This document shows positions 1,512 through 46,033 of a stretch of 64,000 nucleotides of DNA, piece after piece; positions within the stretch are counted from its first letter, which is position 1; each line of letters opens with the position of its first letter. The notes under the pieces are model-generated. The model had not been told where the DNA came from. It was given only the letters and a program-made list of their open reading frames with translations, and did not search any database. A program made the translations under genes and the position numbers. This DNA is from Candidatus Eiseniibacteriota bacterium (GTDB taxonomy: Bacteria; Eisenbacteria; RBG-16-71-46): assembly GCA_963717935.1 (NCBI GenBank), contig CAVQXP010000004.1, positions 1,369,280 to 1,433,279 on the forward strand. Reading direction: 5' to 3'.

Positions 1512-1907
1512 ATGTCGAAAGTCTCTGACTACCAGACGCGCCTCGGCTCCATGCAACTGGCGGGGGCTTTTGCGCTGCTCTTCCTAGTCCTGCATCTGCT
1601 GCACCAACGTTCCGACCCGCTGTTCCTCCACATCGCGGTCGGCTGCCTGGTGCTCGGGGTGTTCTTCTATCGCCTGCTGACGCCGGTCTTCTGGCTCTGG
1701 TCCCGCTTCGGCACGCTCCTCAACAAGGTGATCGGGCCGCTCGTCTTTGGCCTGCTCTTCTACGGCTTCCTGACGCCGATTGCGCTGCTGCGCCGGCTGG
1801 CAGGCGGCAAGGGTCTGCCGACCGGCTTCGCGCCGCCGGGGGAGAGCGCCTGGATCAAGCGCGGGGACGAGCCGTTCAAGCCCGCCGAGTTCGAGAGGCA
1901 GTTCTAG
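1512..1907 (+). CDS. SxtJ-like small polytopic membrane protein (carbamoyltransferase-associated)
   Basis: 131 aa, 3-4 predicted TM helices, immediately downstream of carbamoyltransferase as in sxtI-sxtJ-sxtK-type cassettes; family assignment from recall of that neighbourhood. Confidence 0.55.
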   Translation: MSKVSDYQTRLGSMQLAGAFALLFLVLHLLHQRSDPLFLHIAVGCLVLGVFFYRLLTPVFWLWSRFGTLLNKVIGPLVFGLLFYGFLTPIALLRRLAGGKGLPTGFAPPGESAWIKRGDEPFKPAEFERQF

Positions 1908-1923
1908 CCCGCCGGGTCGCGCG

Positions 1924-3300
1924 ATGACCGATCCCCGGCACGCACGGAACGTCAGGGTCCTCTTCGGGCTCGTCACCCTGGCGGGTTTCGTCACGGTGAT
2001 CATCGGGCTGCTGTTCACCGAGCGGCTGCTCACTCCGTTTGCAGACCACCCGCACATCAATCCGATCAATGTGCGCTACATCCGCCTTGTGCAGATCCGC
2101 TATCTCGTCCTTGGAGCGTCGCTATCCGCGCTCGGGCTGCTGCTCCCACGCATCATCGGGTTCCGGGACTGGCTGGCGGGGCAGCCCCGCGCGATCAACG
2201 TCATCCTGCTGCTGTCCTTCGTCGCGTGGCCGTGCGCGATTCTTGAGCTGGCGCTCTGGGCGCACCCGCAGTTCTCGACCGCCGAGACCCTCAAGCGCTC
2301 GATCAGCTACGTTCCCTCCGCGTTCAGCGTCCACCGCATGGTAGAGCGCGAGCAGACCGTGCTTGCCCCCGACCTGCTGAACCGCAGGCCCATCTACTCG
2401 ATTCGAAATGGCTACCGAAGCCGGCCCTTCGACGTGCGCAAGCCGGCGGGGGAGATCCGCATCTTCATCATCGGCGGGTCCCACGTCCTGGACGCCTGGT
2501 CCTACGGGGAGCAGGACTGGCCCACCGCGACCGAGACCCGTCTGCACGAGCTCGGCTTCCGCAACGTGCGCGTCATCAATGCCGGCACGGCGGGCCACCG
2601 CACCTTCGACGCGCTGGGGCGACTGGTCTCGGAGATCCACCTCTACGCCCCCGACTACGTGGTGCTCTGCTGCACGTACAACGACCTCAAGTTCTTTCCC
2701 TGGGTGAGCCCGGAAAGAACCCTGCTCAAGGGCATCGAGCCGCTGCCGGGCCCGACGCACCGCCCGATCGGGTTCCTGCGCTGGCTGCTCGAACACAGCC
2801 AGCTCTATGTGCGCGCGAGCAACGCCGTTGCACAGCTCACCGGGCGTGTCGCGAAGCAAGCGGGCGGCGACCTCGACGTCGCCCCAACCGAGGGCGGCTA
2901 CCAGGAGATCAGCCCCTACGCGCTGCGGCAGTATCAGCTGCAGCTGCGGGTCTTCGCGGACATTTGCACGAACGCCGGCATCCAGCCGGTATTCTTCACC
3001 GAATCGCGGCTGATCACCCAGGCCAACTACGCCGAGATTGAGAAGAAGGGTGGCTACCGGACCACGATCAGGCTCGCCCCGGGAACCCTGGCCGACACGT
3101 ATCGGCAGTGTGACTCGCTGCTGCGTCTGGTGGCCGAGGAGAAACACGCCTACTTCTTCGATCTGGCGAAGACCGTAAGCGGCATCGAAGCCGACTTCCG
3201 TGACCCGATTCACCTTGAACCACAGGGTAGCGCTGTCGTCGCGGCGAGCGCGGCCGACTACCTTTCCACCATCCTCAAGAAACGAAAGAGCGAGAGGTGA
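1924..3300 (+). CDS. Membrane-anchored SGNH/GDSL-family hydrolase (N-terminal 4-TM domain + SGNH domain)
   Basis: ATG at 1924 within ORF 1780..3300; IFIIGGSHVLD (block I Ser) and DPIHL (DxxH block V) motifs; hydrophobic N-terminus. Confidence 0.7.
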   Translation: MTDPRHARNVRVLFGLVTLAGFVTVIIGLLFTERLLTPFADHPHINPINVRYIRLVQIRYLVLGASLSALGLLLPRIIGFRDWLAGQPRAINVILLLSFVAWPCAILELALWAHPQFSTAETLKRSISYVPSAFSVHRMVEREQTVLAPDLLNRRPIYSIRNGYRSRPFDVRKPAGEIRIFIIGGSHVLDAWSYGEQDWPTATETRLHELGFRNVRVINAGTAGHRTFDALGRLVSEIHLYAPDYVVLCCTYNDLKFFPWVSPERTLLKGIEPLPGPTHRPIGFLRWLLEHSQLYVRASNAVAQLTGRVAKQAGGDLDVAPTEGGYQEISPYALRQYQLQLRVFADICTNAGIQPVFFTESRLITQANYAEIEKKGGYRTTIRLAPGTLADTYRQCDSLLRLVAEEKHAYFFDLAKTVSGIEADFRDPIHLEPQGSAVVAASAADYLSTILKKRKSER

Positions 3301-3303
3301 AGC

Positions 3304-3453
3304 ATGGACTTCCTGACTGACCTGTGGGTGTTCCTCAAGGAACGCAAGAAGTGGTGGCTGCTCCCCGTCATCGTCGTGGTGCTCGTGTTCGGCATCGTCC
3401 TCGTGTTCGGGGGCGCCTCTGCACTCTCGCCGTTCATCTACGCCCTGTTCTAG
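3304..3453 (+). CDS. DUF5989/SxtK-like 49-aa single-TM protein (below ORF-track length cutoff)
   Basis: ATG 3304, TAG 3451-3453; MDFLTDLWVFLKERKKWWLLPVIVVVLVFGIVLVFGGASALSPFIYALF; 3 nt after upstream stop; typical companion of the carbamoyltransferase/SxtJ pair. Confidence 0.55.
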   Translation: MDFLTDLWVFLKERKKWWLLPVIVVVLVFGIVLVFGGASALSPFIYALF

Positions 3454-3670
3454 CAGCACGGAGCGTAGGGCGGGGGGGGGACGTCGGCGCGCGATCGAAA
3501 TCACACTCACCATGGGTCTGACTGCCCCCGCTGCTGCGCCCCCCACGCCGGGCGTCCGGGGCGCGGCGCGCTTGCGTGCCAGTGGGTCCGCAGGAAGGCC
3601 GGCATGTGGCCGGGGTCCGCGCGTTCCGGCAAGTTGCCGCCGTCAGGTCGCCTCTTTCACCCGTACCAAA

Positions 3671-3675
3671 GCCGG
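3671..3675. repeat. Putative 5-bp target-site duplication (gccgg), left copy; right copy at 5905-5909
   Basis: gccgg immediately flanks both IS termini (aaaGCCGG|tgtca ... tgaca|GCCGGgag). Confidence 0.45.
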
Positions 3676-3748
3676 TGTCATCGGTCATGCAAAAGTCCCC
3701 ACTTGCGGTCAGTGAAAGTTCCCCACCCGCACCGAGAGGAGGAGCGGG

Positions 3749-26347: not shown

Positions 26348-27547
26348 GTGCGAGCCAAGACCGAACGCCTGAGGCTGCTGCTGGTCGAGAGCGGCACCGC
26401 CGTCGGCGGCACCGAGCGGGTGGTGTGGGAGCTGGCCACGCGCCTGCCCCGCGCCCGCTGGGACGTGCGCGTGTGGCTCTCGCCGGTGCCGGGCGTGGAC
26501 GAGTTCGCCAGCGCCCTCGAGGCTCACGGCCTCCCGGTCACCCGGGTCGCCGAGGTGGATTCGCGCTGGGACTGGCCCTGCATGCTGGGGACCTGGCGGC
26601 GACTCCGGCGCGAGCGGCCCGACCTGCTTCACGTCCACCATGTGTGGCCCGCGGCCGACCGCTACCTCGCGACGCTGGCGGAGGCCGCAGGCGTGCCCCA
26701 CCTGGTGGTGACCGAGCACATCGAGGGTCACGCGCACTCCACCGCGCAGGGCCGGCTCAAGCGGCGCGAGCTCGCGCGGGCCGAGGTCGTCACGGCGGTC
26801 AGCGCGGCGGTGGCCGATTCGCTGATGCGTGATTATGGCGTGGACCGCGCGCGGGTGCGGGTCGTGCCGAATGGCGCCGAGTTGCCGGACGAGGATGCCG
26901 AGCAGCCCGCGGCGCGGCGCGTGCGCGAGCAACTCGGCGCGGGCGCGCTGCGGCCGCTGTGGGTATGTGCGGGGCGGCTCGAGCACCAGAAGGGCCAGGA
27001 CGTGCTGCTCGACGCGCTGGCGGAGGTCCGCCGGCGGGGGCTCGAGTTCGTGGCGGCGCTGGCGGGCGAAGGCTCGCTGCGCGGAGCGCTCGAGCAGCGA
27101 GCCCGCTCGCTCGGGATCGAGGCCAACGTGCGCTTCCTCGGGCAGGTCGAGGACCTGGGCCCGTTGCTCACCGCCGCGGACGCGGTGGTGCTGCCGTCGC
27201 GCTGGGAGGGCATGCCGCTCGTGCTGCTCGAGGCGCTGGCGCGCGCGCGCCCGGTGGTGGCGAGCGCGGTGGGCGGCGTGCCCGAGGTGGTGACGGACGG
27301 AGAGCACGCGCGGCTCGTGCCGCCCGAGGACGCCCGCGCTCTCGCCGAGGCGCTCGAGGACTTCCATCGCCATCCCGACCCGGCGCTGCGCCTGGGGCGC
27401 CACGCGGCGGCGCGGGTGCGAGAGAGCTTCACCTGGCCGCGCGTGGTCGAAGCCTTCGAGTCGGTGTACGACGAGGTGCTGGGCCTCGCGAGCTTCGCCG
27501 TCGAGGACGCCCGCACGCCGGACGCCGGACGCGGGGGCCCGCGATGA
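26348..27547 (+). CDS. Glycosyltransferase family 4
   Basis: GTG 26348 (MRAKTERLRLLLVESGTAVGGTER...) inside ORF 26096..27547; C-domain SRWEGMPLVLLEALARARPVVAS. Confidence 0.8.
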   Translation: MRAKTERLRLLLVESGTAVGGTERVVWELATRLPRARWDVRVWLSPVPGVDEFASALEAHGLPVTRVAEVDSRWDWPCMLGTWRRLRRERPDLLHVHHVWPAADRYLATLAEAAGVPHLVVTEHIEGHAHSTAQGRLKRRELARAEVVTAVSAAVADSLMRDYGVDRARVRVVPNGAELPDEDAEQPAARRVREQLGAGALRPLWVCAGRLEHQKGQDVLLDALAEVRRRGLEFVAALAGEGSLRGALEQRARSLGIEANVRFLGQVEDLGPLLTAADAVVLPSRWEGMPLVLLEALARARPVVASAVGGVPEVVTDGEHARLVPPEDARALAEALEDFHRHPDPALRLGRHAAARVRESFTWPRVVEAFESVYDEVLGLASFAVEDARTPDAGRGGPR

Positions 27548-28566
27548 GGATCGGGGTGGTGGTGTCGTGCTACCGGCAGGAGCGGTTCCTCGCCCGGACC
27601 GTGGCGGCGATCGAGCGCGCGCTCGAAGGCGAGGACTGGCAGGGCGTGCTGGAGTTCGCCGCGCCGTCGGACGAGCCGCTGCCCCCGCGTTCGGGACGCT
27701 GGCGGGTGATCTCGAGCTTCGACCCGGTGACGCGGCGTCCGTCGCGTCCGCTCACGCCGGGCGCGGGCCGCATGCTGGGCTTCGCCGCCTGCGGGGGCGA
27801 CTGGGTGTTGTTCGCGGACTCCGACATGGAGCTCGACGCCTCCTGGGTGCGCGCGATCATCGCGACCGCGGCCCGCGAGCCCCGGCTGGGCGGGATCGGT
27901 GGCCGGATCGAGGAGTGGTTCGTGGATGGCCCCGTGGAGCGGCCGGGCAAGCACGACATGTACGGCACGGGAGACCGCGACCGCGCCGTGGGCTATTTCG
28001 GGAACGTCGCCTTCTACCGGCGCGAGGCGCTGGCCGCCGCCGGCGGCTACGACGTGCGGCTCAGCTCGGACGAGGATTTCGAGCTGGGCATGAGGCTCCG
28101 CTGGCTGGGGTTCGAGTTGCGCTCGCTGGGCGTGCGCGCCGGCCGGCACTGGAGCGCGCCGCGCCCGAGCTTCCCGGAGCTCTCCCGCCGCTGGCGGACG
28201 GGGCTGTGCTTCGGGCAGGGCCAGGTGTTGAGGCTCTATCTCGGGCGCCGCGGATTCGGCACGCTGCTCGGGAGGCAATGGCTCTACATCGCCACGCTCG
28301 GGATCTGGTCGCTGGGCGTGGCGACGCTCGTGGCGTGGCTCGTGTCGGGTGACCCTCGCCTGCTCGCGCGCTGGGTGGTGCTCCTGCTGGCGTTGCTCGC
28401 GTTCATGACCGTCCGCAAGCGGAGCCCGCGGCTCGCGGTGCATTCGCTGCTCACCTGGACCCTGAACGGGCTCGGTATGCTGGTCGGGTTGACGCGGCCG
28501 CCGCGCGCGGAGCGACCGGCGGTCGCCGGCGCCGCGGGGCCCGGTGGCGGGGAGGCGGCATGCTGA
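27544..28566 (+). CDS. Glycosyltransferase family 2 with C-terminal TM helices
   Basis: ATG 27544 (MRIGVVVSCYRQERFLARTV...) overlapping upstream stop; DSD motif; hydrophobic C-terminus. Confidence 0.75.
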   Translation: MRIGVVVSCYRQERFLARTVAAIERALEGEDWQGVLEFAAPSDEPLPPRSGRWRVISSFDPVTRRPSRPLTPGAGRMLGFAACGGDWVLFADSDMELDASWVRAIIATAAREPRLGGIGGRIEEWFVDGPVERPGKHDMYGTGDRDRAVGYFGNVAFYRREALAAAGGYDVRLSSDEDFELGMRLRWLGFELRSLGVRAGRHWSAPRPSFPELSRRWRTGLCFGQGQVLRLYLGRRGFGTLLGRQWLYIATLGIWSLGVATLVAWLVSGDPRLLARWVVLLLALLAFMTVRKRSPRLAVHSLLTWTLNGLGMLVGLTRPPRAERPAVAGAAGPGGGEAAC

Positions 28567-29779
28567 TCCACGCCGCCACCGACAACGACATCCATCCCCC
28601 GTTGTTCGGCGGGCCGCAGCGCACCTTCGGGCTGTTGCGCGGCCTGGCCCGCCGCCACGAGGTCGAGGCGCTCTGCGTGGTCCCGAACCGGAACCAGGCC
28701 CCGCGCGAGGAGCGCGCGGCGGGGGTGAGGATCCTGCGCCGCAAGGCCTGGTACACGAGCGCGGTGTGGCGGCTCGAACAGGCGCGGCTCGCGCCCATGT
28801 TCCTCGCCGCCGCCGGGCACACGCTCGCGGCGGGGCGCCTGGCGCGCGCCTTCTCGGCGCCCGCGGAGGCGCTGCTGGCCGACCTGAATCTGAGCGGGCT
28901 GTTCGGTGCGGACCCGGCCCCGCTGAAGGTCTACACGGCGCACAACGTCGAGTTCGACCATTTCCGCACGGCTCGCGCCGAGGTGGTGGGGCCTGCGTTC
29001 TGGGGCGCGCGCCTGCGCGCCCTCGAGACGCGCGCGGTGGAGCGCGCCGGCCTCACCGTGGTGTGCGGCGACGAGGACGCGGCGCGGCTGCGGGAGCTCT
29101 ACGGGGCCCGCGACGAGTCGCTGGCCGTCATCCCGAACGGCTTCGACGAGACCGCGGTCCACGCGCCGTCCCCCGAAGAGCGCGCGCGGGCGCGCGCGGC
29201 CCTCGGCCTGGGCGAGCGCGAGTACGCGGCGCTCTTCGTGGGCTCGGACTTCCCCCACAACCGTGCGGCGCTCGCCTGGCTCATGGACCGCGTCATGCCG
29301 CCGCTGGCGGGCGAGGGCTTCCGGTTGCTGGTCGCGGGCTCGGTCACGCGCTCGCTCGCCGGGCGGCGCGAGGGCTGGCTGCTCGCGCGGCCCGAGACGC
29401 CGGACCTCGCGCCGATGCTCCAGGCTGCGGACGCGGGCCTCAACCCGGTGACCAGCGGCGGTGGCAGCAACGTGAAGCTCCCGACCTATCTGGCGGCCGG
29501 GCTCGCGGTGCTGAGCACGCCCTTCGGGTTGCGTGGCTTCGCGTCACTCAAACCCTGGGTCGTGACTGCGGGATTGGAGGGGCTGACCGAGGCGCTGCGC
29601 ACGCGCCCGGCCGGCTGGCTGGCGCGCGGACTGCCGATGCCGGTCGAGGTGGTGGAGCACGCCTGGGGCCGGCTGGGCGAGCGGTTGGGCGAGATGCTGG
29701 AAGCGAAGCGACGGGGCAAGGACATCCACACCGCCCGTGGGGGCCCCTCGGCGTCCGCGGTGGGGGGGCGGGCGCATGA
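28560..29779 (+). CDS. Glycosyltransferase family 4; 3' end ambiguous because a G7 homopolymer (29762-29768) leaves the frame open to 31028 (predicted stop TGA 29777-29779 if the run were G8)
   Basis: GGGAGG RBS + ATG 28560; GT4 domain occupies first ~400 aa of the 822-aa ORF 28560..31028, remainder is Arg-rich out-of-frame read of the next gene. Confidence 0.7.
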
Positions 29780-30903
29780 GAATCGCGATGATCGGGCAGA
29801 AGGGCATCCCGGCCACCTACGGCGGCATCGAGCGCCACGTCGAGGAGATCGCGCGACGGCTCGCGGCCATGGGACACCAGGTGGACGTCTTCTGCCGGCT
29901 TCACTACACGGCGCCGGGGACGACCTGCCACGGCGTCCGCCTGCTGCGGCGTCCGAGTGTGCACACCAAGCACTTCGACACCCTGACGCACGTGGTCTGG
30001 GCCACGGCCGAGTCCATGATGCGACGTTACGACATCGTCCAGTTCCACGCCCTGGGCCCGTCGGTGTTCGCGTGGCTGCCGCGTCTGAGCGGGGCCCGCA
30101 CCGTGGTCACCGTGCACGGCCTCGACTGGCAGCGCGAGAAGTGGGGCATGGTTGCGTCGTGGTTCCTCAAGCAGTGCGAGGGGCCGGCCGCGCATTTCCC
30201 GGACCGCACCATCGTGGTCTCGAAGACGCTGCGCGACTACTTCAACGCCCACCACCACTGCGACGCCGCGTTCATCCCCAACGGCACGAACCTGCTGCCG
30301 GCGCGCCCGGCGCGCAGGATCCTGCAACTCGGGCTCACGCCCGGCAAGTACGTGCTCTTCGTCGGGCGCCTGGTGCCCGAGAAGGGCGTGCACTTCCTGT
30401 GCGAGGCGTTCTCGAAGATCGACACCGACATGAAGCTCGCGCTGGTGGGGGGCACCGCGGCCTCCGAGGACTACGTCAACCTCATCCGGGGCTACGAGAG
30501 CGACCGCATCCGGCTGCTCGACTACGTCTACGGCGAGGGGCTCGAGGAGCTGTGGAGCAACGCCTACCTGGTGGTGCAGCCCTCCACCATGGAGGGGCTC
30601 TCGATCGCGTTGCTCGAGGCGCTCTCCTACGGGCGCTGCGTGCTGCTCTCGGACATCCCCGAGAACCTGGAGGTGGCCGAGGAGTGCGCCGTGCCGTTCA
30701 AGAGCCGCGACGTGGAGGACCTGCGTGTCAAACTCGAGGCGCTGCTGCGCGACCCCGCCCTGGTGAAGAGCTTCGAGTCGAAGGCGCAGGAGCACATCCG
30801 CCAGCACTACTCGTGGGACCGCGTGGCGAAGAACACCGAGACCGTCTACCTGGACCTGCTCGGGGGCCGCCGCCGGCGCGGCCAAGAGCGCCTCACAGAA
30901 TGA
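29776..30903 (+). CDS. Glycosyltransferase family 4
   Basis: ATG 29776 (MRIAMIGQKGIPATYGGIERHVEEIARRLAAMGHQVDVFC...), EX7E region STMEGLSIALLEALSYGRCVLLSD; 375 aa. Confidence 0.85.
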   Translation: MRIAMIGQKGIPATYGGIERHVEEIARRLAAMGHQVDVFCRLHYTAPGTTCHGVRLLRRPSVHTKHFDTLTHVVWATAESMMRRYDIVQFHALGPSVFAWLPRLSGARTVVTVHGLDWQREKWGMVASWFLKQCEGPAAHFPDRTIVVSKTLRDYFNAHHHCDAAFIPNGTNLLPARPARRILQLGLTPGKYVLFVGRLVPEKGVHFLCEAFSKIDTDMKLALVGGTAASEDYVNLIRGYESDRIRLLDYVYGEGLEELWSNAYLVVQPSTMEGLSIALLEALSYGRCVLLSDIPENLEVAEECAVPFKSRDVEDLRVKLEALLRDPALVKSFESKAQEHIRQHYSWDRVAKNTETVYLDLLGGRRRRGQERLTE

Positions 30904-31089
30904 GTGCAGGCGGGCCTGCAGGGCGGACGCCTGGCGCTCGTGCGCGAGGCGCCGCTCCGGCTGCCGGTCTGCGGATGCAGCAGCAACCTGCGTGGTTTGC
31001 GAGCGGCTGCGCCGCCACGGTACGATAGCCGCTGTCCCCCTTCGACTGACGAATCCACATTCCACACTCAGGCGTATGGGGGTCGCACG

Positions 31090-32715
31090 TTGTCCGATGA
31101 TTCTCTTGCGGGCGATTCGCGCTCGCTCGGCAGGCGCAGACGGCCGCTCCTTCTCCGGATTGCGCCTCCCATTCTCCTGTTTGTCATGTTCATGGGTTTG
31201 TATGGAACAGTCCGATCAAATCAGCTGACCCAGGACTCGATGACCTACGCGGCTTCGGTCATCCAGCCGGACACGGCCTTTTTTCACCCGCATCACATCC
31301 TATACAACGGCGCCATGCGGATGGCCTTCCTCGGTGCTGCACCTTGGCTGAACGGCCCGGACGCCCGACTCCGCTTCCTGCAGTACGTGAACATCTCGCT
31401 CAGTGCGTTGCTTCCTGTCGTCGTCTACGCAGTTTGCATGACCATCGGGGTGCAGATACTGCTCTCGCTGGGGTCAGCCCTGTTGTTTGGGCTGTCCTCG
31501 GCCTTCTCCGTCTACAGTTCGCAAATCGAAGTCTACAATGTGACCGCTCTCTGTCTTTCGCTTGCCGTCCTAGGTCTGACCACGAGAGGTGGATGGCGAG
31601 GTCTCCTCGTTCCTGCGGGATATGCACTCGCGATGTGTTTCCACCAGACCGCGCTCTTCTTCGGACTGGCCATCCTGATTACGCATCTCCTGGCCGCGGA
31701 GAAGCAGCGCATGTGGATGCGGCTGTTGCGGGATCTTGTCGTCCCGCTGCTGGCCGTCGGAACCGTTTGCGCGGTCGTGGGTACGAGCCTTGGTCATGCG
31801 AGCCCAAGAGCCCTTTGGGCCTGGCTCACAACCTATGCGCACCTGGGAATCTGGGGCACGACGGGGCTGTCGATCCAGACCCTGCGCGCCGCGTGGATCG
31901 GCGGGCGAAGCGCATTCATCGATAGCCCCGGTCACCTGCAAAACTACCTTCTTGTCGTGCTCTTGGGACTTTATGTGGCGGTCAGTCTTGTTGGTGAGGG
32001 GAAGCGTACGATCGCAGAACGTAAGTTCGTGGTCGCGCTGTTAGCATGGTGGATTGTCTCGGCGGTGTTCAATGTGTGGTGGGATGGGGGGAACCGCGAG
32101 TTCTGGATACTGCCGACGCTCGCGGCCGTTGTCCTTCTGGCAGCCATCGATGGGGGTGGGGCGGGGATGAAGAGCCTGTGGGTTCGCAGCACCCGGTCCG
32201 TGATGCTGATTCTCTGCCTCCCTCTGCTGCTGACTTCCTACGTTATGCACTATAGGTCAAACCAGCGGCCGAACGAATTCAGGGCGACTGCCCTGGTCTG
32301 CGCGGAGGTCATGCGCGACGGCGACATGATGCTCGCCGTCGGCGGGGACCGTGCCGCATACTACCGCGTGTACCTGATTCCCCGACGAATCGACGTCGCG
32401 ACCTTGAACGGCTACGATGTCGCTGGCGTTGCCTTGCGAAGAGGGACCCAGGAGGCGTTCACCCGCGCGTTGCTCGACGTCATCGCTGAGAGGATCGGGG
32501 CGACCACGTCCCGCGGGGGCCGGGCCTTCGTTGATTCGTGGATTCAGGGAGGGGATCTGCCTACGACCCGGTTGGTCAGAGATTTGGACGTCCCGGCGTT
32601 CATGGTCGGCCTGGACGAACGGTTTGTTCTGGAGCCTGTCCACCGCGAGGGGGGGGCTCTGATCTACAGAGTTCTGGCGAAGAAGAGCGGACCGGGGCCT
32701 CTCGGCGGCCGATGA
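31090..32715 (+). CDS. Polytopic membrane protein, GT-C-like (putative polyprenyl-P-sugar-dependent glycosyltransferase/polymerase); start uncertain
   Basis: ≥10 TM helices in ORF 30904..32715; first ~60 codons non-protein-like, candidate TTG start 31090 after GGGGGT; family not resolved. Confidence 0.45.
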   Translation: MSDDSLAGDSRSLGRRRRPLLLRIAPPILLFVMFMGLYGTVRSNQLTQDSMTYAASVIQPDTAFFHPHHILYNGAMRMAFLGAAPWLNGPDARLRFLQYVNISLSALLPVVVYAVCMTIGVQILLSLGSALLFGLSSAFSVYSSQIEVYNVTALCLSLAVLGLTTRGGWRGLLVPAGYALAMCFHQTALFFGLAILITHLLAAEKQRMWMRLLRDLVVPLLAVGTVCAVVGTSLGHASPRALWAWLTTYAHLGIWGTTGLSIQTLRAAWIGGRSAFIDSPGHLQNYLLVVLLGLYVAVSLVGEGKRTIAERKFVVALLAWWIVSAVFNVWWDGGNREFWILPTLAAVVLLAAIDGGGAGMKSLWVRSTRSVMLILCLPLLLTSYVMHYRSNQRPNEFRATALVCAEVMRDGDMMLAVGGDRAAYYRVYLIPRRIDVATLNGYDVAGVALRRGTQEAFTRALLDVIAERIGATTSRGGRAFVDSWIQGGDLPTTRLVRDLDVPAFMVGLDERFVLEPVHREGGALIYRVLAKKSGPGPLGGR

Positions 32716-32881
32716 ACGGTTTCTCCGGGCCTCCTCACCCGAGGGCAGGCGGTGAACGAGCGCAGTCCTGGAGGAAGGTGGGTCCCATCGGTTTGCGCTG
32801 TGACGCCGCGTCTGAGTCGTAGCCCGGGGATAGTGCCCCTCTCCGGAGCCTGCGCTATAGTGCGGCTGACCCGAGGTCCAA

Positions 32882-38816: not shown

Positions 38817-40652
38817 CTAGCCTGACGGCTGATGATCCGGATGTCCCGTCTCGAAACGTCGCCGGGCGTAGGCCACCATGATGTCCCGTCGGGAGAGAAG
38901 CCCCAGCACGCGCGGCGCGTCCCCGGGCTCGACGACCGGGAGTTCCTCCACGCTCAGAGACATGAGTCGTTGCAGCGCCGTGTCGAGATCGTCATCCGGC
39001 GACAGCGTCGCCAGCGGACGGGAAGCCAGATCGTGGGCGATGACCGGCACGGTCTCGTCGTGCTCGTCGAGGAACTGACGGACCTGGGCGAGCGTGATGA
39101 GCCCGGTCATCTGTCCCTTCTTATCGACCACCGGGAAGCAGTGCTGCGAGGAGCGCATGCAGGCCTGGATCACGTCGCGCAGCGAGTCGGTCTGCTGCAG
39201 GGAATGGAGCGGCCGGTCGCCCAGCACGTCCTGCACGTGGATGGCCTGCAGGATCCCGCCGAGGATCGCACCGCGATGTGCCGGTGAATCCAGCCTGGAT
39301 GGGACCTGGCTGCGATAGAGGGTCCAGCGCCGGGCGAGCAGGTAGGAGAGGGAGCAGACCCACAGCGCCGGAAGCAGGAGCTGATAGTTCCCCGTCATCT
39401 CGGAGACCATGACGAGGGTCGAGATGGGCGTGCTCGCGGCTGCGGAGAAGAACCCCGCCATCCCCACGGCCACGAAGGCGCCGGGCTGCGTGACGACCTC
39501 GGGCATCAGCTGCTGCGCGACGAGCCCGGCAGCGCCACCGAGCGCCCCACCGATCACCATGGAAGGCCCGAAGACGCCGCCCGACCCCCCGGAGCCGATC
39601 GAGAAGGAGGTGGTGAGGATCTTTCCACCGGCCAGCACCAGCAGCAGGACGATGGGGAGCTCGCCCCGCAGCGCGTGCTGGATGGAGCCGTACCCGAAGG
39701 AAAGCACGTCCAGCGTGCGCGAGTCTCTCAGAGTGTAGTAGGCCACCAGGGCGAGTCCCCCGGTGAGGAGGCCGCCCAGCGCGGGCTTCAGGGCGCGGGG
39801 GATGTCGAGACGCTTGAAGAAGGCGTGTACGCCATAGAATGCCTTCACGAACACGATCGCACCCAGGGCCACCACGACCGCGAGGCCGGTGTAGGGGATC
39901 AGTTCGGCCGCGGAGTGGAACGCGAAGTGCGGCGTCTCGAAGAGCGGAGCGAAGCCGAACTTCAACGAGAACACGCAATACGCGATGATCGTCGAGATGG
40001 CGGCCGGGATGATGACGTCCGGCTCGAACTCGGGATCGGAATAGAGGACCTCGGCGGCGAACAACGCGCCCGCCAGAGGCGCGCGGAAGATGCTCCCGAC
40101 GCCCGCGCCCACGCCGGCCGCGAGCAGGATCCGCCGGTCCCGCTCGCTGAGCCCGAGTCTCGTGGCGAGGAACGACCCGAAGCCGGCGCCGATCTGAGCG
40201 ATCGGCCCTTCGCGCCCCCCCGAGCCCCCCGAGCCGAGGGTGATCGCCGAGGCGATGGTCTTGACGATTGGCACGCGCGCGCGGATGACGCCTCCGCGGC
40301 GGTGAAAGGCGTCCACGGCCTCGTCGGTCCCGTGGCCCGCGGCCTCGGGGGCGAAGCGCTGGACGATGATGCCGGTCAGGAGCCCTCCCAGGGTGGTGAC
40401 GACGGGCAGCATCCATGGGCGGAAGGGCGTCGCCGTCACGGAGAAGAGCGCCAGCTCGCCCGCTGGACCACCGAGTCGTGCCCCGGCGAGCCGATCCAGA
40501 AAGAGGTGCTGGGCGCCCTGGCAGAGGACCTGAAAGACGATGGCCCCGCTTCCGGCCACCACTCCCACGAGCGAGCTGAGGGCCACCGCGCGTCCGACCG
40601 CGTTCAGTCCCCACCTCTCGGTGTGTCGAGCGATGTGTCGGAGCGGGCTCAC
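38817..40652 (-). CDS. ClC-family chloride channel/Cl-/H+ antiporter with C-terminal CBS pair
   Basis: 611 aa; GSGGSGGREGP and GSGGSGGVFGPS selectivity motifs; CBS domains at C-terminus. Confidence 0.9.
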   Translation of the reverse strand: MSPLRHIARHTERWGLNAVGRAVALSSLVGVVAGSGAIVFQVLCQGAQHLFLDRLAGARLGGPAGELALFSVTATPFRPWMLPVVTTLGGLLTGIIVQRFAPEAAGHGTDEAVDAFHRRGGVIRARVPIVKTIASAITLGSGGSGGREGPIAQIGAGFGSFLATRLGLSERDRRILLAAGVGAGVGSIFRAPLAGALFAAEVLYSDPEFEPDVIIPAAISTIIAYCVFSLKFGFAPLFETPHFAFHSAAELIPYTGLAVVVALGAIVFVKAFYGVHAFFKRLDIPRALKPALGGLLTGGLALVAYYTLRDSRTLDVLSFGYGSIQHALRGELPIVLLLVLAGGKILTTSFSIGSGGSGGVFGPSMVIGGALGGAAGLVAQQLMPEVVTQPGAFVAVGMAGFFSAAASTPISTLVMVSEMTGNYQLLLPALWVCSLSYLLARRWTLYRSQVPSRLDSPAHRGAILGGILQAIHVQDVLGDRPLHSLQQTDSLRDVIQACMRSSQHCFPVVDKKGQMTGLITLAQVRQFLDEHDETVPVIAHDLASRPLATLSPDDDLDTALQRLMSLSVEELPVVEPGDAPRVLGLLSRRDIMVAYARRRFETGHPDHQPSG

Positions 40653-40801: not shown

Positions 40802-42060
40802 CTATCTGTCGTGGTTCGTGCCTCCCCGCTCCAACACGTGCGCGAAGATCGCCAGGTAGTCGCGTATCTCGCGAGGATGGAGGAAGTTGTCCCGCACGTG
40901 CTCGCGTCCCTCGCGCCCGAGTCTGCGGCGCAACGTGGGGTCTCGCAGCAGCCGGGTGATCTGGAACGCGCAGCCCTTCGATCGAGCGGACGAGCATGCC
41001 CGTCCGCTCGTGGATCACCTGCAGGGGAATGCCCCCGACGGCGCTCGCCACGACGGCGCGGCGCTTCCACAGCGCCTCCGAGACGGTCAGGGCGAATCCC
41101 TCGCGCAGCGACTTCTGCACCACCACGGCCGAGCGTCGCTGCAGGGCGTTGATGATCCGGTGCGCGTCGGGTGGCAGCGCCAGGATCGAGATGTCCTTGC
41201 GCCCGCCCGCCTTCTCCTGCGTCTCGGCCAGCACCGCCGCGCCCTCGGGGTCGTCGTCCGCGGTGCCCCCGGCGAGCACGAGGTGCGCCTTCTCACGACG
41301 GCGCGCCAGCAGGAACGCCTCGATGACGCCGATCGGGTCCTTGAGACGGTCGAAGCGCGAGACCTGCGTGACGAGGGGCGTCTCCTGCGGCAGGTCGAAC
41401 GGTTCGAGGAGGGCCTCGAACTCGGACTCGGTGAGCTCACAGTTCTTGTCCGAGAGCGGGTCGATGGAGGGTGGCGCGAGGTAGCCCGGCGTGGGCAAGG
41501 GGGGGACGAAGGTCACGTGCGAGAAGACGGCCGCGTCGTAATGGCCGACGGCGGGGTCACGATGAAGTCGAGCACGTCCCGGTTGGCCCGCGAGAGATCG
41601 ATGTGACAGCGCCAGACCCAGTGCTGGCCGGGACGGCGGCGCAACTCGGCGAGCGCGGCCGGCTGGGGGTCGTGCACGAGGACCAGATCGGCGTCCAGCG
41701 GCCAGCGTCTCCGCCGCCTGCCGGTTCATCTCGAGGAAGTAGTCGTAGTCGTCCCGCGTGATCGTGCCCGGCCCGCCGTGCAGCGTGTTGTGGATCGTCT
41801 TGGTGATGTCGTAGAAGCGTGCGTCGCCGGGCATCACCTCCCAGGTCGTGGGGATCGCCCAGCTCGTTCAGCAGCGGCACCAGGCGGTGCAGGATCTCGG
41901 CCACGCCGCCGCCGGTGGCAGTGGCGTTGACCATCGCGATGCGGTGTCCTCGGAGCGCGCGAGCGAGCGATTCCAGTGCACGCATGGCGCCGTCGCCGAC
42001 CACCGCTCGATAGCCGTCCACGAGCGAGGTGCCGTCGGAGCGGACGTCGACCAGGCTCAT
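40802..42060 (-). pseudogene. treT: Trehalose glycosyltransferring synthase TreT (GT4) disrupted by at least four 1-nt frameshifts
   Basis: Conserved TreT segments are split over three frames. They are MSLVDV...VNATATGGGVAEILHRLVPLLNELG, IPTTWEVMPGDARFYDITKTIHNTLHGG, LDADLVLVHDPQPAALAEL...WRCHIDLS, PPSIDPLSDKNCELTESE...VTQVSRFDRLKD, SLREGFALTVSEALWKRRAVVASAVGG, and the C-terminus RDNFLHPREIRDYLAIFAHVLER* ending at TAG 40802-40804. The reading frame can be followed only by switching between ORF-track frames (41557..42732, 40713..41837) and an unlisted third frame. Confidence 0.7.
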
Positions 42061-42099
42061 GACACCTCCTCCGGGCGTGTGACGCGCCGCAGAGCCGCG

Positions 42100-42820
42100 C
42101 CATGGCCCGGCGACCGGCCTCACGGCGCGCGTCTTCCGGCGACGCCGCCGCTTCCGTGACCCGCCTGGCCGATGCGGCTCTGCCGCCAGCGCCGGTGGAG
42201 CTGTGCCGCGAGCCTTCTCGATGGGCAGACCCGAGCTCGCCGCATCCCGCAGCCACTTCGCCAGGCGGCGATCTCCCGTGACCAGGAGCCAGTCCAGCAG
42301 GGACGCGCGGCCCCTCCTGGAGCCACGGCTCCTCGACGAGGTGGAAGAACCACACGCCCGCGTCGGCCTCCAGCAGCGCTTCCACCAGCTCCTGGCCGTC
42401 CCGTACGCAGGACGCCGGTCGAGAAGCTCGACCGAGGTCGCTGACAGGAACAGGAAGCGACTCTCCTCGGGCGCATCGCGGTCCCGGCGGCGGCTTGCAG
42501 GCAGCGCGTCGAGCACCTCGAGCAGCGCGGCGCCGACGGCGCGTCGGCGAGGCGTGCCGGCTCTGCACGGCGAAGGACGATCCGCTCGGCCGTCTCGGCG
42601 TCCTGCACGACGCCGCCGATCCAGGCGCTGAAGTCGTCCGGAGGCAGCTCGCCGGCGCCCGGGATGGCGCAGCTGATACTGGACGGTGTGGTCGGAAGAG
42701 CACCTCGTCCGGCGCCGACGCGATGCCGTCACGCAGCTGGTCCAGGTCGCGGGCCGGGTCTCCCCACGGCTGGATCAGGTGAGTGACCGCCCTGAGCTCG
42801 AATGAAGTCGCGTCCAGCAT
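42100..42820 (-). pseudogene. Disrupted ORF of unknown function (protein-like segments spread over three frames)
   Basis: MLDATSFELRAVTHLIQPWGDPARDLDQLRDG..., ...LLEVLDALPAS...FLFLSATSVELLDRRP..., VRDGQELVEALLEADAGVWFFHLVEEPWLQEG, LLDWLLVTGDRRLAKWLRDAASSGLPIEKA in different frames of the minus strand. Confidence 0.3.
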
Positions 42821-43528
42821 CAGTCACTGGCCTCTTCGGCCGCTCCTCGTCGAGCGAGCGCAGGTACTCGACCACGAAGTCCCGGGTGAGCTCGCGGCAC
42901 CCGAGCCCGAACGCGAGGGCGAGGCCAAGACCTGCGGCGGCCACGGCGACGATGCCCAGAGCCATGACGAACTGGGCCGCGAAGCCGAGCTGCTCGAGCG
43001 CCAGCAGGGCGGCGAAGCCGATGAGGATCACGGAGACGACCTGGCCCTGGAGCCTGGCGGCGCGGATGCCGGCGGTCTCGAGAAAGCGCTGCGTGACGCT
43101 TCCCAGCAGCATGGCGACCAGGGAGCCGACCGCGAACAGCACGGCGGAGGTCACGATCCGAGGGACGACCTCGTTGAGGCGGTCACCCACCGAGGCAGCG
43201 AGGTTGAACCCGAGCATCTCGAGGGCGAGCAGGGCCGTGGAGGCGATGACGAGCCAGTAGATCGGCCCAGGCGGCCACTCCCGCGGGCTCGTGGCGGGCC
43301 GTCGCGCGCTCGCCGATCAGCCAGCGGACGCCTTCGTCGAACTGAGGGCGCGCAGGACAGCCGACGCAGGAGACGGTCGACGAGGGTCGCGAGCGCCCAG
43401 CCCACGAACATCACGACGACCGCGATCAGGAGACCGAGCGCCCCTCGCTCGGCACCGCGACCCAACTCGCCCAACCGGGCGAGGACGCCCGACCATGGTT
43501 CCACGTGAAGGACAACCAGGGTCCACAT
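42729..43528 (-). CDS. MscS-related 'conserved TM helix' repeat membrane protein; ORF track implies a frameshift near 43260, the displayed sequence as I read it does not
   Basis: N-terminus MWTLVVLHVEPWSGVLARLGELG...(in ORF 43151..44443 frame) and C-terminal part MLGFNLAASVGDRLNEVVPRIVTSAVLFAVGSLVAML... (ORF 42729..43217); paralogue of 60845..61549. Confidence 0.4.
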
Positions 43529-43559
43529 AGAATCACCTCCTGCGATTGCGTCCGGGGCC

Positions 43560-45216
43560 TCAGCCGGACGGCGGTCCGCCCTCGGTGGCAGGACTTGCCG
43601 CCGGAGCGTTCCTGGGTGGGAGTTCTGAGGTTCAGACCGACGATGGTGTCGAGCACGTCGAGCATCCAATCGAAGATGTTGCGGCGCAGGACGGTCTCGC
43701 GAAGCGCGCGCCATGCGTTCGCGTCGCGCGCTCGGGAGCGGCGGAGAGAGCGGCGTGATACGCGTCGGCGAGGCCCTCGCGGTCGTAGGGCGAGAGCGAT
43801 CCAGGCGCGTTCGAGCTCGCGGGCCGCACCGGTGAAGGGGGACAAGCACCAGGGCGCCCTCGAGATCGGGCGAGGCGGCGATGTACTCCTTGGCGACGAG
43901 ATTCATGCCGTCGTGGAGGGACGTGACCGTGCACAGGTCCGCCATCCGATAGTAGGGGACCAGCTCGCGGAAGTCGAGATTGGCCTCGATCAGATGCACC
44001 GTGGGGCCCGCCGCCCGCGGGAAGCGGCGGTTGATGTTCTCGGCCCAGCGCCGCACACGTGCCTGCACGTTGCGGTATTCACGCAACTCGATGCGGGAGG
44101 GCACGCCGATCTGGATGAAGGCGAAGCGCCCCTGCCACTCGGGTGCTTCTCGAACAGGCGCTCGAGCGCTTCGAAGCGCTCGGCGATGCCCTTGGTGTAG
44201 TCGAGGCGGTCCACGCCGAGGCCGACCTTGCAGCCCGTCCAGGCCCAGCCGCCCGCGGAGGTCGGCTCTCGGCCCGTCGGGTCTCCGGCGGCCTCCGCGA
44301 GCGTGGCGATCTCCTCCGCGTCCACGCTGATGGCGAACGGCTGAACCCAGGTGCGCCTGCCGGCGCGGTCGACGGCGAATCGCTCGAGGTCCACGCGGGC
44401 CTCGAAGCGTCTCCGCGACCGTGTCCAGGAAGTTCATGCGCATGTCGGCGGATGTGGAACCCCACCACGTCGTTCGCCAGCATCCCCTCGAGGATCTCCT
44501 CCTTCCAGGGCAGCACGCGGAACACCTCGGGGTTCGGCCACGGGATGTGCCAGAACATCGCCACCTGAAGGTCCGGTCGCCGTTCCTTGATGAAACGGGC
44601 CGCCAGCGCCAGGTGGTAGTCCTGGATGAAGATCAGGGCCGGCTCATCCTCCACCTCCTCGAGCACCGCCGCGGCGAAACGCCGGTTGACCTCGCAGTAG
44701 GACTGCCAATCAGCCAGGTGGAAGCGTGGCCGGACGTACACCACGTGGCACAGCGGCCAGAGGGCGCTGTTGGCGAAACCAGAGTAGTAGCGGGCGTGGT
44801 CCTCATGGGTGAGCCACAGACGTCGCAGTGTGTAGCGTGGTCGATCCGGCGGACAGGCCACGCGGTCGTGAGCATCGACGACGTCCCGGTCGGCGTCACC
44901 GCTGCCGTGGGCCACCCATGCTGCCGCCGAGCGCCTGCATGACCGCATCGAGTGCCACCGTGAGGCCGCCGGCGTTGCGGATCGTGTGGATGCGGTCGCC
45001 GTGGTGGACGTGGGAGTACGGCTCCCGGTTCGAGACGACGACCAGCTTGCGGTCGGGCAGGTGGGCCCGTGCCCAATCGACGAGCTCGCCCGGGTCGTGC
45101 GGGGGGGACCTTCGCTGCGCTGCTGGCTGCGGATCGCAGCCCGGCTCAGCGCGGATCGGGTACGGGCTCTGATGCTCATGCGCGCCTCCGCGGCGGGAAT
45201 CGATCGGCCCCACCAC
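43560..45216 (-). pseudogene. otsA: Trehalose-6-phosphate synthase OtsA (GT20) disrupted by ≥5 frameshifts
   Basis: OtsA segments are distributed over ORF-track entries 44896..45216, 44079..45242, 43990..44394, 43151..44443, 43632..43934 and 43426..43845, all in different frames. The segments are RKLVVVSNREPYSH, YYSGFANSALWPLCH...IFIQDYHLALAARFIKERRPD...WHIPWPNPE, DLERFAVDRAGRRTWVQPFAISVD, GLGVDRLDYTKGI, GRFAFIQIGVPSR...LHDGMNLVAKEY, LSPYDREGLADAYHAAL and FDWMLDVLDTIVGL. Confidence 0.7.
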
Positions 45217-46033
45217 CGGCGGCCCCTGCTACACGCAGCCATTCCTCGAGGAAGTCGGCGACCGAAGCGCAGGTTGGAAGGTGCGCAGCGGCGACCGTCC
45301 GTCGATCGCTCTCACCGACACGCACGCCGAAACCGAATCCCTGGACGGCCTCGAACGCGTCCTCGTCCGTGACATCGTCTCCCAGGAAGACCGCGAGTGT
45401 GTCTTCGGGAGACTGCGAGACGAGCGAGAGAACGGCCGTGCCCTTGTTCCAGCCGCACACACGCAACTCGATGCCTCCGTCGATTCGCTGGAGACGGACC
45501 TTCTCCTCCCCCTCGGCCAGGGTCTGCCACGCGGTCCACGTCTGGTCCTCCAGCTCGCGTGCGAGTCCCCCCCCCGCGACGCCCCGGGTATGGAGCACAA
45601 GCCCCGTACGCTTCCGCTCGAGGAGTCCTCCCATCCCCCTGTCACGAGCCGTCCGCTCGGCGCGATCCAGGATCTCCACCGATGCCGCTGAGACCGGATG
45701 CTGCAGGACCGAACCATCCCTCTGCCGCATCTCCCATCCATGCTCTCCCACCAGCGTGACGGGGAGTGGCCCCAGCAGTCGTCCCACCTCGCTCAGGGAC
45801 CGGCCCGACACGACCGCCACGCTCGTATGGGGCTCCGCGGCGATCGCGCCCACCAACTCAAGAGAGCGTGGCAGCGGGAGTGCCAGTTCACGGGTCACAT
45901 GGAATGGGGCCAGAGTCCCATCGTAGTCCAGCATCAGCAGCCGGTGATGGGCCAGCGAAACCAGCCGCCAGAGTCGTCGCGGGACCCCGGTCAGCAGATG
46001 CGGCTGCTGTACGCGCTTTGCCATGACAGACAT
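45176..46033 (-). CDS. otsB: Trehalose-6-phosphate phosphatase OtsB (HAD-IIB), apparently intact
   Basis: 285 aa; HRLLMLDYDGTLAPF motif I, GDDVTDEDAF motif; C-terminus abuts/overlaps otsA remnant. Confidence 0.8.
   Translation of the reverse strand: MSVMAKRVQQPHLLTGVPRRLWRLVSLAHHRLLMLDYDGTLAPFHVTRELALPLPRSLELVGAIAAEPHTSVAVVSGRSLSEVGRLLGPLPVTLVGEHGWEMRQRDGSVLQHPVSAASVEILDRAERTARDRGMGGLLERKRTGLVLHTRGVAGGGLARELEDQTWTAWQTLAEGEEKVRLQRIDGGIELRVCGWNKGTAVLSLVSQSPEDTLAVFLGDDVTDEDAFEAVQGFGFGVRVGESDRRTVAAAHLPTCASVADFLEEWLRVAGAAGGGADRFPPRRRA

Follow-up and report, generated by a model that had tools for sequence, protein, structure and literature searches.

Does the run of seven guanines between two glycosyltransferase genes of a Candidatus Eisenbacteria metagenome contig act as a switch for a surface glycan, or is the record simply one base short at this point? 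Phase-variable poly-G tracts are found in glycosyltransferase genes such as Campylobacter wlaN/cgtB, and the initial annotation of this locus proposed such a switch, with a homopolymer sequencing error as the alternative. We addressed the question in a window of 64,000 nucleotides, by which we mean the whole stretch of DNA that was analyzed, and in the same junction of relatives. The lineage is represented solely by MAGs and metagenome contigs. The source of the window is a metagenome contig of 2,138,985 bp (NCBI/ENA), and a contig of this length implies a long-read-type assembly. It holds the products of the GT2 gene (P0241) and the downstream GT4 gene (P0259) of the window. An exact copy of the 340-aa GT2 product is recorded both from this 2.14-Mb contig and from run ERR12035938.

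The upstream GT4 gene has no stop codon near its end

The features of the locus are collected in Table 1. In the window sequence, the junction reads tGGGGGGGc on the plus strand, and the frame that opens at ATG 28560 meets its first stop only at 31028, which gives an ORF of 822 aa, just as the initial annotation had described. Several frames stay open in high-GC genomes; therefore, the real frame was checked first by GC3 and Pfam. GC3 of the 28560 frame was 0.88–1.00 over 28600–29650. Past 29800, it dropped to 0.35–0.51, and that of the 29776 frame climbed to 0.90–1.00. This switch between the two frames indicated that the final ~417 aa of the 822-aa ORF come from reading the next gene out of frame. 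Pfam analysis agreed, as GT4 domains were found in both genes, those of the upstream product being PF13439 and PF13692 in residues 22–325, and the GT4 of the downstream gene was complete. The first description of the tail as misread sequence of the neighboring GT4 was thus confirmed. The conserved TGA also ends another ORF, 28544..29779, but this candidate for the real gene was discarded as Arg/Ala/Gly-rich off-frame noise.

A codon-position HMM run over the whole window identified the upstream GT4 gene as the sole plus-strand coding segment without a stop near its end. The number of G7 matches on both strands of the window was 18, compared to 28.3 ± 6.5 expected from dinucleotide shuffles, so that no over-representation of long G tracts relative to base composition was found in the window. 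The exceptional feature at the junction is the absent stop and not the G7 run itself. As for the rest of the HMM path, small frame flickers at 60.5–63.6 kb look like ordinary gene overlaps or short ORFs, not frameshifts.

We then modeled tracts that were longer and shorter by one base, and the frame arithmetic of the initial annotation was reproduced. Addition of one G (the G8 model) gave a 406-aa product ending in AVGGAGA-stop at TGA 29777–29779, thereby forming an ATGA overlap (29776–29779) with the downstream start, ATG 29776. Removal of one G (the G6 model) joined both GT4 genes in frame as a single product of 780 aa.

Table 1. Coordinates of the features discussed, in window numbering.
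Feature	Position	Strand	Basis or remark
GT2 glycosyltransferase, 340 aa	27544..28566	+	Directly upstream, same overlapping operon
Upstream GT4, genuine part, residues 1–403 (to ...SAVGG)	28560..29768	+	GC3, Pfam, orthologues
G7 tract, encoding Gly-Gly of the upstream tail	29762..29768	+	One base shorter than the frame needs
TGA, conserved stop of the upstream GT4	29777..29779	+	One base out of frame as written; reached by the G8 model
Downstream GT4 glycosyltransferase, 375 aa	29776..30903	+	Pfam PF13439/PF00534, partial DUF1972
Spurious read-through tail of the 822-aa ORF	29769..31028	+	Arg/Pro/Ala-rich; GC3 0.35–0.57; no Pfam domain
Cluster of ~28 isolated single-base indels and two 2-nt insertions	40973..45090	-	Alignment to L063 and L064

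The stop/start overlap is kept in relatives

The order of the operon genes is conserved in relatives: Bac_transf, GT4(395), GT2(340), GT4(406), and GT4(369). Operon neighbors overlap too, by 4 nt and 7 nt; the start of the upstream GT4 overlaps the GT2 stop by 7 nt, which is the same in relatives. The downstream start, ATG 29776, is also kept in relatives as ATGA(G/A)(G/A)ATCGCGATGATCGG, although the source record annotates this gene from ATG 29788, with a product of 371 aa (P0259). Four genes were also compared with NCBIfam, and none of them received an equivalog-level assignment.

The junction was located in every fetched locus, and the 47 readable ones were counted. All 47 relatives (48–92% identity) had a stop/start overlap, either 4 nt (ATGA/GTGA) or 1 nt (TGATG), and the window was the sole exception among the junctions compared. 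The overlap of the coupled pair is therefore present in 47/47 relatives, broken in the window as written, and regained when one base is added. The genuine part of the upstream GT4 was 84–92% identical to orthologues of 406 aa. The closest homologues (82–91% identity) were 406–407 aa long and ended in AG(G/R)AGA-stop; one of them, P0004, has the tail AVGGAGA-stop, identical to that of the G8 model.

Naturally fused orthologues had been named by the initial annotation as evidence that would speak against its reading. They were looked for, and none was found in the 47 loci or in the database proteins searched: no relative (0/47) had a fused or read-through junction, and none of the best 120 homologues of the upstream GT4 exceeded 438 aa. 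On these grounds, a natural GT4–GT4 fusion was rejected. A search with 200 aa from across the junction and into the tail retrieved no protein that reached into the read-through tail, the maximum query coverage of 63% corresponding to the genuine upstream part only, and the same query found no 100%-identical fragment from an independent assembly of the same population. Exact look-up of the 822-, 375-, and 388-aa products and of the modeled G8 (406 aa) and G6 (780 aa) products returned no record, and these look-ups and searches brought up no independent contig across the 29762 junction.

The position of the missing base was derived from alignment with three loci, L029 (93% identity), L030, and L001. 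Compared to these, the sole coding indel in the ~5-kb glycosyltransferase cluster was one base missing within 29761–29768. Since L001 carries TT followed by G7, the lost base could equally be a T; slippage in the poly-G run is the natural reading of the indel, not the sole one.

The G tract lies in a purine block before the downstream start

At the DNA level, the G tract is not conserved, and most relatives have GGGAGGG, GGAGAGGG, or GGGACGGG at this place. Among 37 distinct junctions, the stretch from −14 to −8 relative to the downstream start was G/A-rich, and positions −12 to −8 were nearly all purine. GGAG or GAGG was present within −18 to −5 in 25 of these 37 junctions, where the window has GGGGGGG. 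From its place in this purine block, 8–14 nt before the downstream ATG, the tract can be identified as the Shine-Dalgarno-like element of the second GT4, lying within the final codons of the first. Pure G runs were found in a few relatives, namely G9 in L033, G8 in L042, TT+G7 in L001, and G6 in several others; over all 47 relatives, the run ranged from G3 to G9, and every one was in frame. A comparison between L036 (GCG GCG GGG AGG GCG GGC GCA TGA) and the G8 model showed only one C-to-T and one A-to-G change, the latter being what produces the homopolymer.

The tract corresponds to codons 402–403 of 406, four codons ahead of the stop, whereas the last Pfam GT4 domain reaches only to residue 325. 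Because of this position, a frameshift in the tract leaves the whole enzyme fold intact.

Single-base errors occur elsewhere in the assembly

A scan for other frame breaks pointed to minus-strand genes in the 41–45 kb region, which were then aligned to two intact syntenic orthologous loci, L063 (85%) and L064 (88.5%). The indel cluster in this region consists of 25 extra single bases, 3 missing bases, and the two 2-nt insertions, most of them outside homopolymers. It breaks four genes that are otherwise conserved (otsA, an MS-channel gene, a DUF5752 gene, and treT) and are here scattered over all three frames. Stitched OtsA was 89% identical to its closest homologue (P0121), no lower than the values of intact neighbors, indicating that the genes of the cluster are not old pseudogenes. 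That explanation was rejected on three grounds: the identity just given, the nature of the changes, which are nearly all +1 insertions, and the disagreement of an independent assembly. To our knowledge, no natural process yields ~25 one-base insertions in 4 kb.

The independent data are a Logan assembly of the same population, from run ERR12035938, which carries an identical 611-aa CLC protein. Upstream of CLC, the Logan contig has an open partial gene of 94 codons that ends exactly at TAG 40802–40804. The window as written has an in-frame stop inside those 94 codons, and deletion of the extra base at ~40973 restores ...EGCAFQITRLLRD..., as in the orthologue. Thus, as judged from gene coordinates in the Logan contig, at least the indel at ~40973 is missing from the independent data. 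The 94-aa TreT fragment predicted after this correction had no exact match in the collection, in which products cut by contig ends are apparently not stored. Taken together, the indel cluster and the disagreement with the Logan contig indicated that the assembly holds uncorrected single-base consensus errors. Its homopolymers are mostly right: 15 coding G/C runs of at least 6 keep the frame, as do G8 at 32649 and C9 at 45567.

A consensus error as the favored explanation

We propose that one base has been lost from the T/G run 29761–29768 of the window, probably through a consensus error of a long-read metagenome assembly, that is, a basecalling or polishing slip. In accordance with this, the lost base maps inside the run itself, an error-prone context. 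Sereika et al. (2022, PMC9262707) report that, for Nanopore R10.4, homopolymer accuracy at the read level varies at lengths 8–9 and that polishing is required for bins under 40x. The true sequence would be GTG GGG GGG GCG GGC GCA TGA (G8), or GTT GGG GGG GCG... like that of L001. With the base restored, the locus would be an ordinary translationally coupled GT4 pair, part of a polysaccharide operon (Bac_transf, GT4, GT2, GT4, GT4) that is conserved in Eisenbacteria; the upstream GT4 would end in the ATGA overlap, and the purine-rich ribosome-binding block for the gene downstream would fall within the last Gly/Arg/Ala codons of the upstream one. An A-to-G change in this block (GGGGAGGG to GGGGGGGG) may have built the homopolymer, at a length where long-read consensus starts failing.

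The conserved architecture of the junction, the exact site of the lost base, and other single-base errors in the assembly are direct results of the comparisons above. From them, we infer that the particular base lost at 29761–29768 is an assembly error, because the architecture is conserved, the same record contains errors elsewhere, the context is a homopolymer, and the true tract would be of 8. Some observations point the other way. The junction is 11 kb from the indel cluster, in an otherwise clean region. The errors of the cluster are mainly insertions outside homopolymers, whereas the change at the junction is a deletion within a homopolymer. The 15 coding G/C runs, the G8, and the C9 mentioned above are all in frame. 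Furthermore, the far 3′ end of a gene is where a true frameshift is best tolerated, which somewhat favors a real deletion.

Such a real deletion is the alternative that survives best, and we regard it as possible but doubtful. It would be a recent loss of one base by replication slippage in G8 (or in TT+G7), fixed or frequent in the population, and would represent an incidental, possibly reversible mutation of the polysaccharide operon, for example under phage pressure, rather than an evolved switch. G:C tracts of at least 7 do frameshift reversibly, high-GC bacteria included, as in the 7C tract of M. tuberculosis glpK (10.1101/717272), and poly-G/C tracts are stated to support phase variation from a length of seven (PMC2193922). 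However, the frame and the overlap are kept in 47/47 relatives, implying purifying selection on exactly the feature that is broken here. The other homopolymers of the window are in frame, hence there is no sign of systematic miscalling, and ~5 kb around the junction is without other frame-breaking indels; nevertheless, single-base errors are proven in the same assembly. The deletion would have hit the least damaging site of the gene, the GT-B fold (residues 1–403) staying whole. A similar frameshift “fusion”, of GT4(395) and GT2, is present in another metagenome contig (P0245/L065), although it may itself be an error, and no other record in the collection has a G7-type product.

It is very unlikely that the tract is an evolved contingency locus, that is, a poly-G switch that would keep the two GT4s separate (G8), allow read-through (G7), or fuse them (G6), thereby varying the surface glycan. 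Close relatives do differ in the length of the tract (G3 to G9), but each of these variants is in frame, and neither an off state nor a fused state was found in the 47 relatives or in the database proteins searched. Glycosyltransferases of a polysaccharide cluster are a classic target class of such switches; however, the known switches truncate the protein, whereas this tract is 4 codons from the stop. The tract reaches the oft-quoted threshold of 7, but experimentally shown tracts, for example that of pgtA, have 9–20 G (PMC2193922). Moreover, the tract is missing from most relatives, and drift in a Shine-Dalgarno-like purine block explains it; G7 runs are also not enriched in the window (18 vs. 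the 28 expected). These points, in addition to the single-base errors of the assembly, led us to abandon the phase-variation headline of the initial annotation. A biological on/off switch at the junction is not supported. In contrast, the frame arithmetic of that annotation stands, and the homopolymer sequencing error, which it had offered as the alternative, is the reading now favored by the junctions of relatives and by the other errors of the assembly.

A different form of the idea, to which we give very little credence, is that a real G7 coexists with G8 (perhaps also with G6) in the natural population. The tract would then be a reversible toggle of the stop/start coupling of the two GT4 genes, not of truncation, and would vary the surface polysaccharide. 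In such a case, the homopolymer would have been born in the embedded ribosome-binding block, the states would be separate, uncoupled/extended, and fused, and some −1 slippage on G_GGG_GGG could make the off state leaky.

Recoding, by which a −1 ribosomal slip on G_GGG_GGG (or polymerase stutter adding a G) would yield the conserved 406-aa protein, is the least credible explanation: the zero-frame register of the heptamer is right (codons GTG GGG GGG), the shifted frame reads GCG GGC GCA TGA, which is the conserved AGA-stop tail, and low-level compensatory frameshifting on a 7-G run is known in herpesvirus thymidine kinase (PMC5009743), but 0/47 relatives need a frameshift, the RNA of 29769–29860 folds at −31.2 kcal/mol compared to −34.7 ± 3.6 for shuffled sequences (z = +0.98), offering no stimulatory structure, and a suitably spaced upstream stimulator is absent. 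At most, recoding would rescue a real deletion in a leaky manner and would not be programmed.

Meaning of the missing base

The locus is most probably an ordinary coupled GT4–GT4 junction that lacks one base through an assembly error. If so, the 822-aa “GT4” ORF and the 371-aa downstream call should not be propagated, and the 4-kb trehalose stretch, from otsA to treT, has to be polished before pseudogenes or gene loss are claimed from this record. Since there are few stops in the alternative frames of GC-rich genomes, one indel near a gene end gives a very long and striking ORF. Alternatively, in the case of a real deletion, residues 1–403 of the upstream enzyme would be retained and followed by ~417 Arg/Pro/Ala-rich residues. 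Ribosomes would then pass the downstream start out of frame, so that termination-reinitiation coupling would be lost and expression of the downstream GT4 would probably be lower. The junction would then be a modest case, from an uncultured phylum, of a homopolymer mutation that affects a polysaccharide operon through translational coupling and not through truncation.

Comparison with known systems

The junction shares with N. gonorrhoeae pgtA (PMC2193922) a G homopolymer that sets the frame of a glycosyltransferase gene. Alleles of pgtA without the tract have the interrupted form GGGAGCGGGG, and the equivalent at this locus in relatives is GGGGAGGG. However, the pgtA tract has 9–20 G, is on or off among isolates, and truncates the enzyme, whereas the tract of the window has 7 and the relatives are all in frame. 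The 7C tract of M. tuberculosis glpK (10.1101/717272) likewise is a G:C run of 7 that lies within a gene of a high-GC genome, and it makes a real indel plausible; unlike the junction, it is located mid-gene, and its variants were observed in cultured isolates and infected mice, whereas the window is a single metagenome consensus. The G7 run of herpesvirus thymidine kinase (PMC5009743) is similar in that an indel occurs in a 7-G run and slippage could restore some wild-type product. Frameshifting in the window is, by contrast, hypothetical, and this likeness is relevant only if the deletion is real.

Homopolymer errors of long-read (Nanopore-type) data (PMC9262707) resemble the junction in the probable one-base error in a G:C run, the megabase metagenome contig, the frameshifted gene call, and the further single-base indels in the same assembly. 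They differ in that most other homopolymers of the window are in frame and that the errors of the cluster are chiefly insertions outside homopolymers. Finally, compared to translationally coupled overlapping genes, the window as written is without the in-frame stop and its overlap is broken; the architecture of 47/47 relatives, in which the coding sequence of the first gene includes the Shine-Dalgarno sequence of the second, is that of such genes.

Gene overlaps and the start of the downstream GT4 gene

Each of the four glycosyltransferase genes in the operon (26360-30903) overlaps its neighbors, at the positions listed in the table below, which suggests that translation is coupled across the entire cluster. 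The conserved start of the downstream GT4 gene is ATG 29776, which is used by all relatives but not by the source record, where the gene is called from ATG 29788 as a 371-aa product (P0259). The gene caller was probably led to this shifted start by the frame problem. For the upstream GT4, no product is recorded from the source.

Features of the glycosyltransferase operon and the regions downstream
Feature	Coordinates	Location	Remark
ATGA overlap	27544-27547	glycosyltransferase operon	
7-nt overlap	28560-28566	glycosyltransferase operon	
ATGA overlap	29776-29779	glycosyltransferase operon	present only with the base restored
Multi-transmembrane ORF	30904-32715	inside 30883-32869	603 aa
CLC channel gene	38817-40652	flanks indel cluster	intact
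otsB-like gene	45176-46033	flanks indel cluster	intact

Length variation at the 3′ end of GT4(395)

Compared with two relatives' loci (L030 and L001), the window carries a 12-nt in-frame insertion (GACGCGGGGGCC) at 27528-27540, at the 3′ end of GT4(395) and directly ahead of the GT2 start, which is ordinary length variation in the poorly conserved tail of this gene. On another metagenome contig (L065, positions 1541-3724; JGI Ga0598252_0025333), a frameshift as recorded lies near the GT4(395) 3′ end and reads into GT2, and the protein called there (P0245) is a 727-aa "fusion" of GT4(395) and GT2. It is a long ORF of the same kind as that in the window, arising from one indel (mutation or error) in a stop-poor, GC-rich operon.

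Indel cluster and variable segment downstream

Compared with two intact orthologous loci, positions 40973-45090 of the window (minus strand) have approximately 25 isolated extra single bases, lack a single base at three places, and carry two 2-nt insertions. These indels break the reading frames of otsA (GT20), an MS-channel gene, a DUF5752 gene, and treT into many pieces. The region has the look of assembly sequence that was left unpolished or had low coverage, rather than of pseudogenes.

The ~2-kb segment at 30883-32869, with GC reduced to 0.60-0.65, varies among the relatives' loci: L005 lacks it and has 125 nt at that place, and L029 and L030 carry a different ~1.2 kb instead. A G8 run (32649-32656) close to the 3′ end of its 603-aa ORF keeps the frame. 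Searches of Pfam and NCBIfam gave no match for this ORF, which may encode a variable membrane protein of the polysaccharide cluster, similar to a polymerase or ligase.
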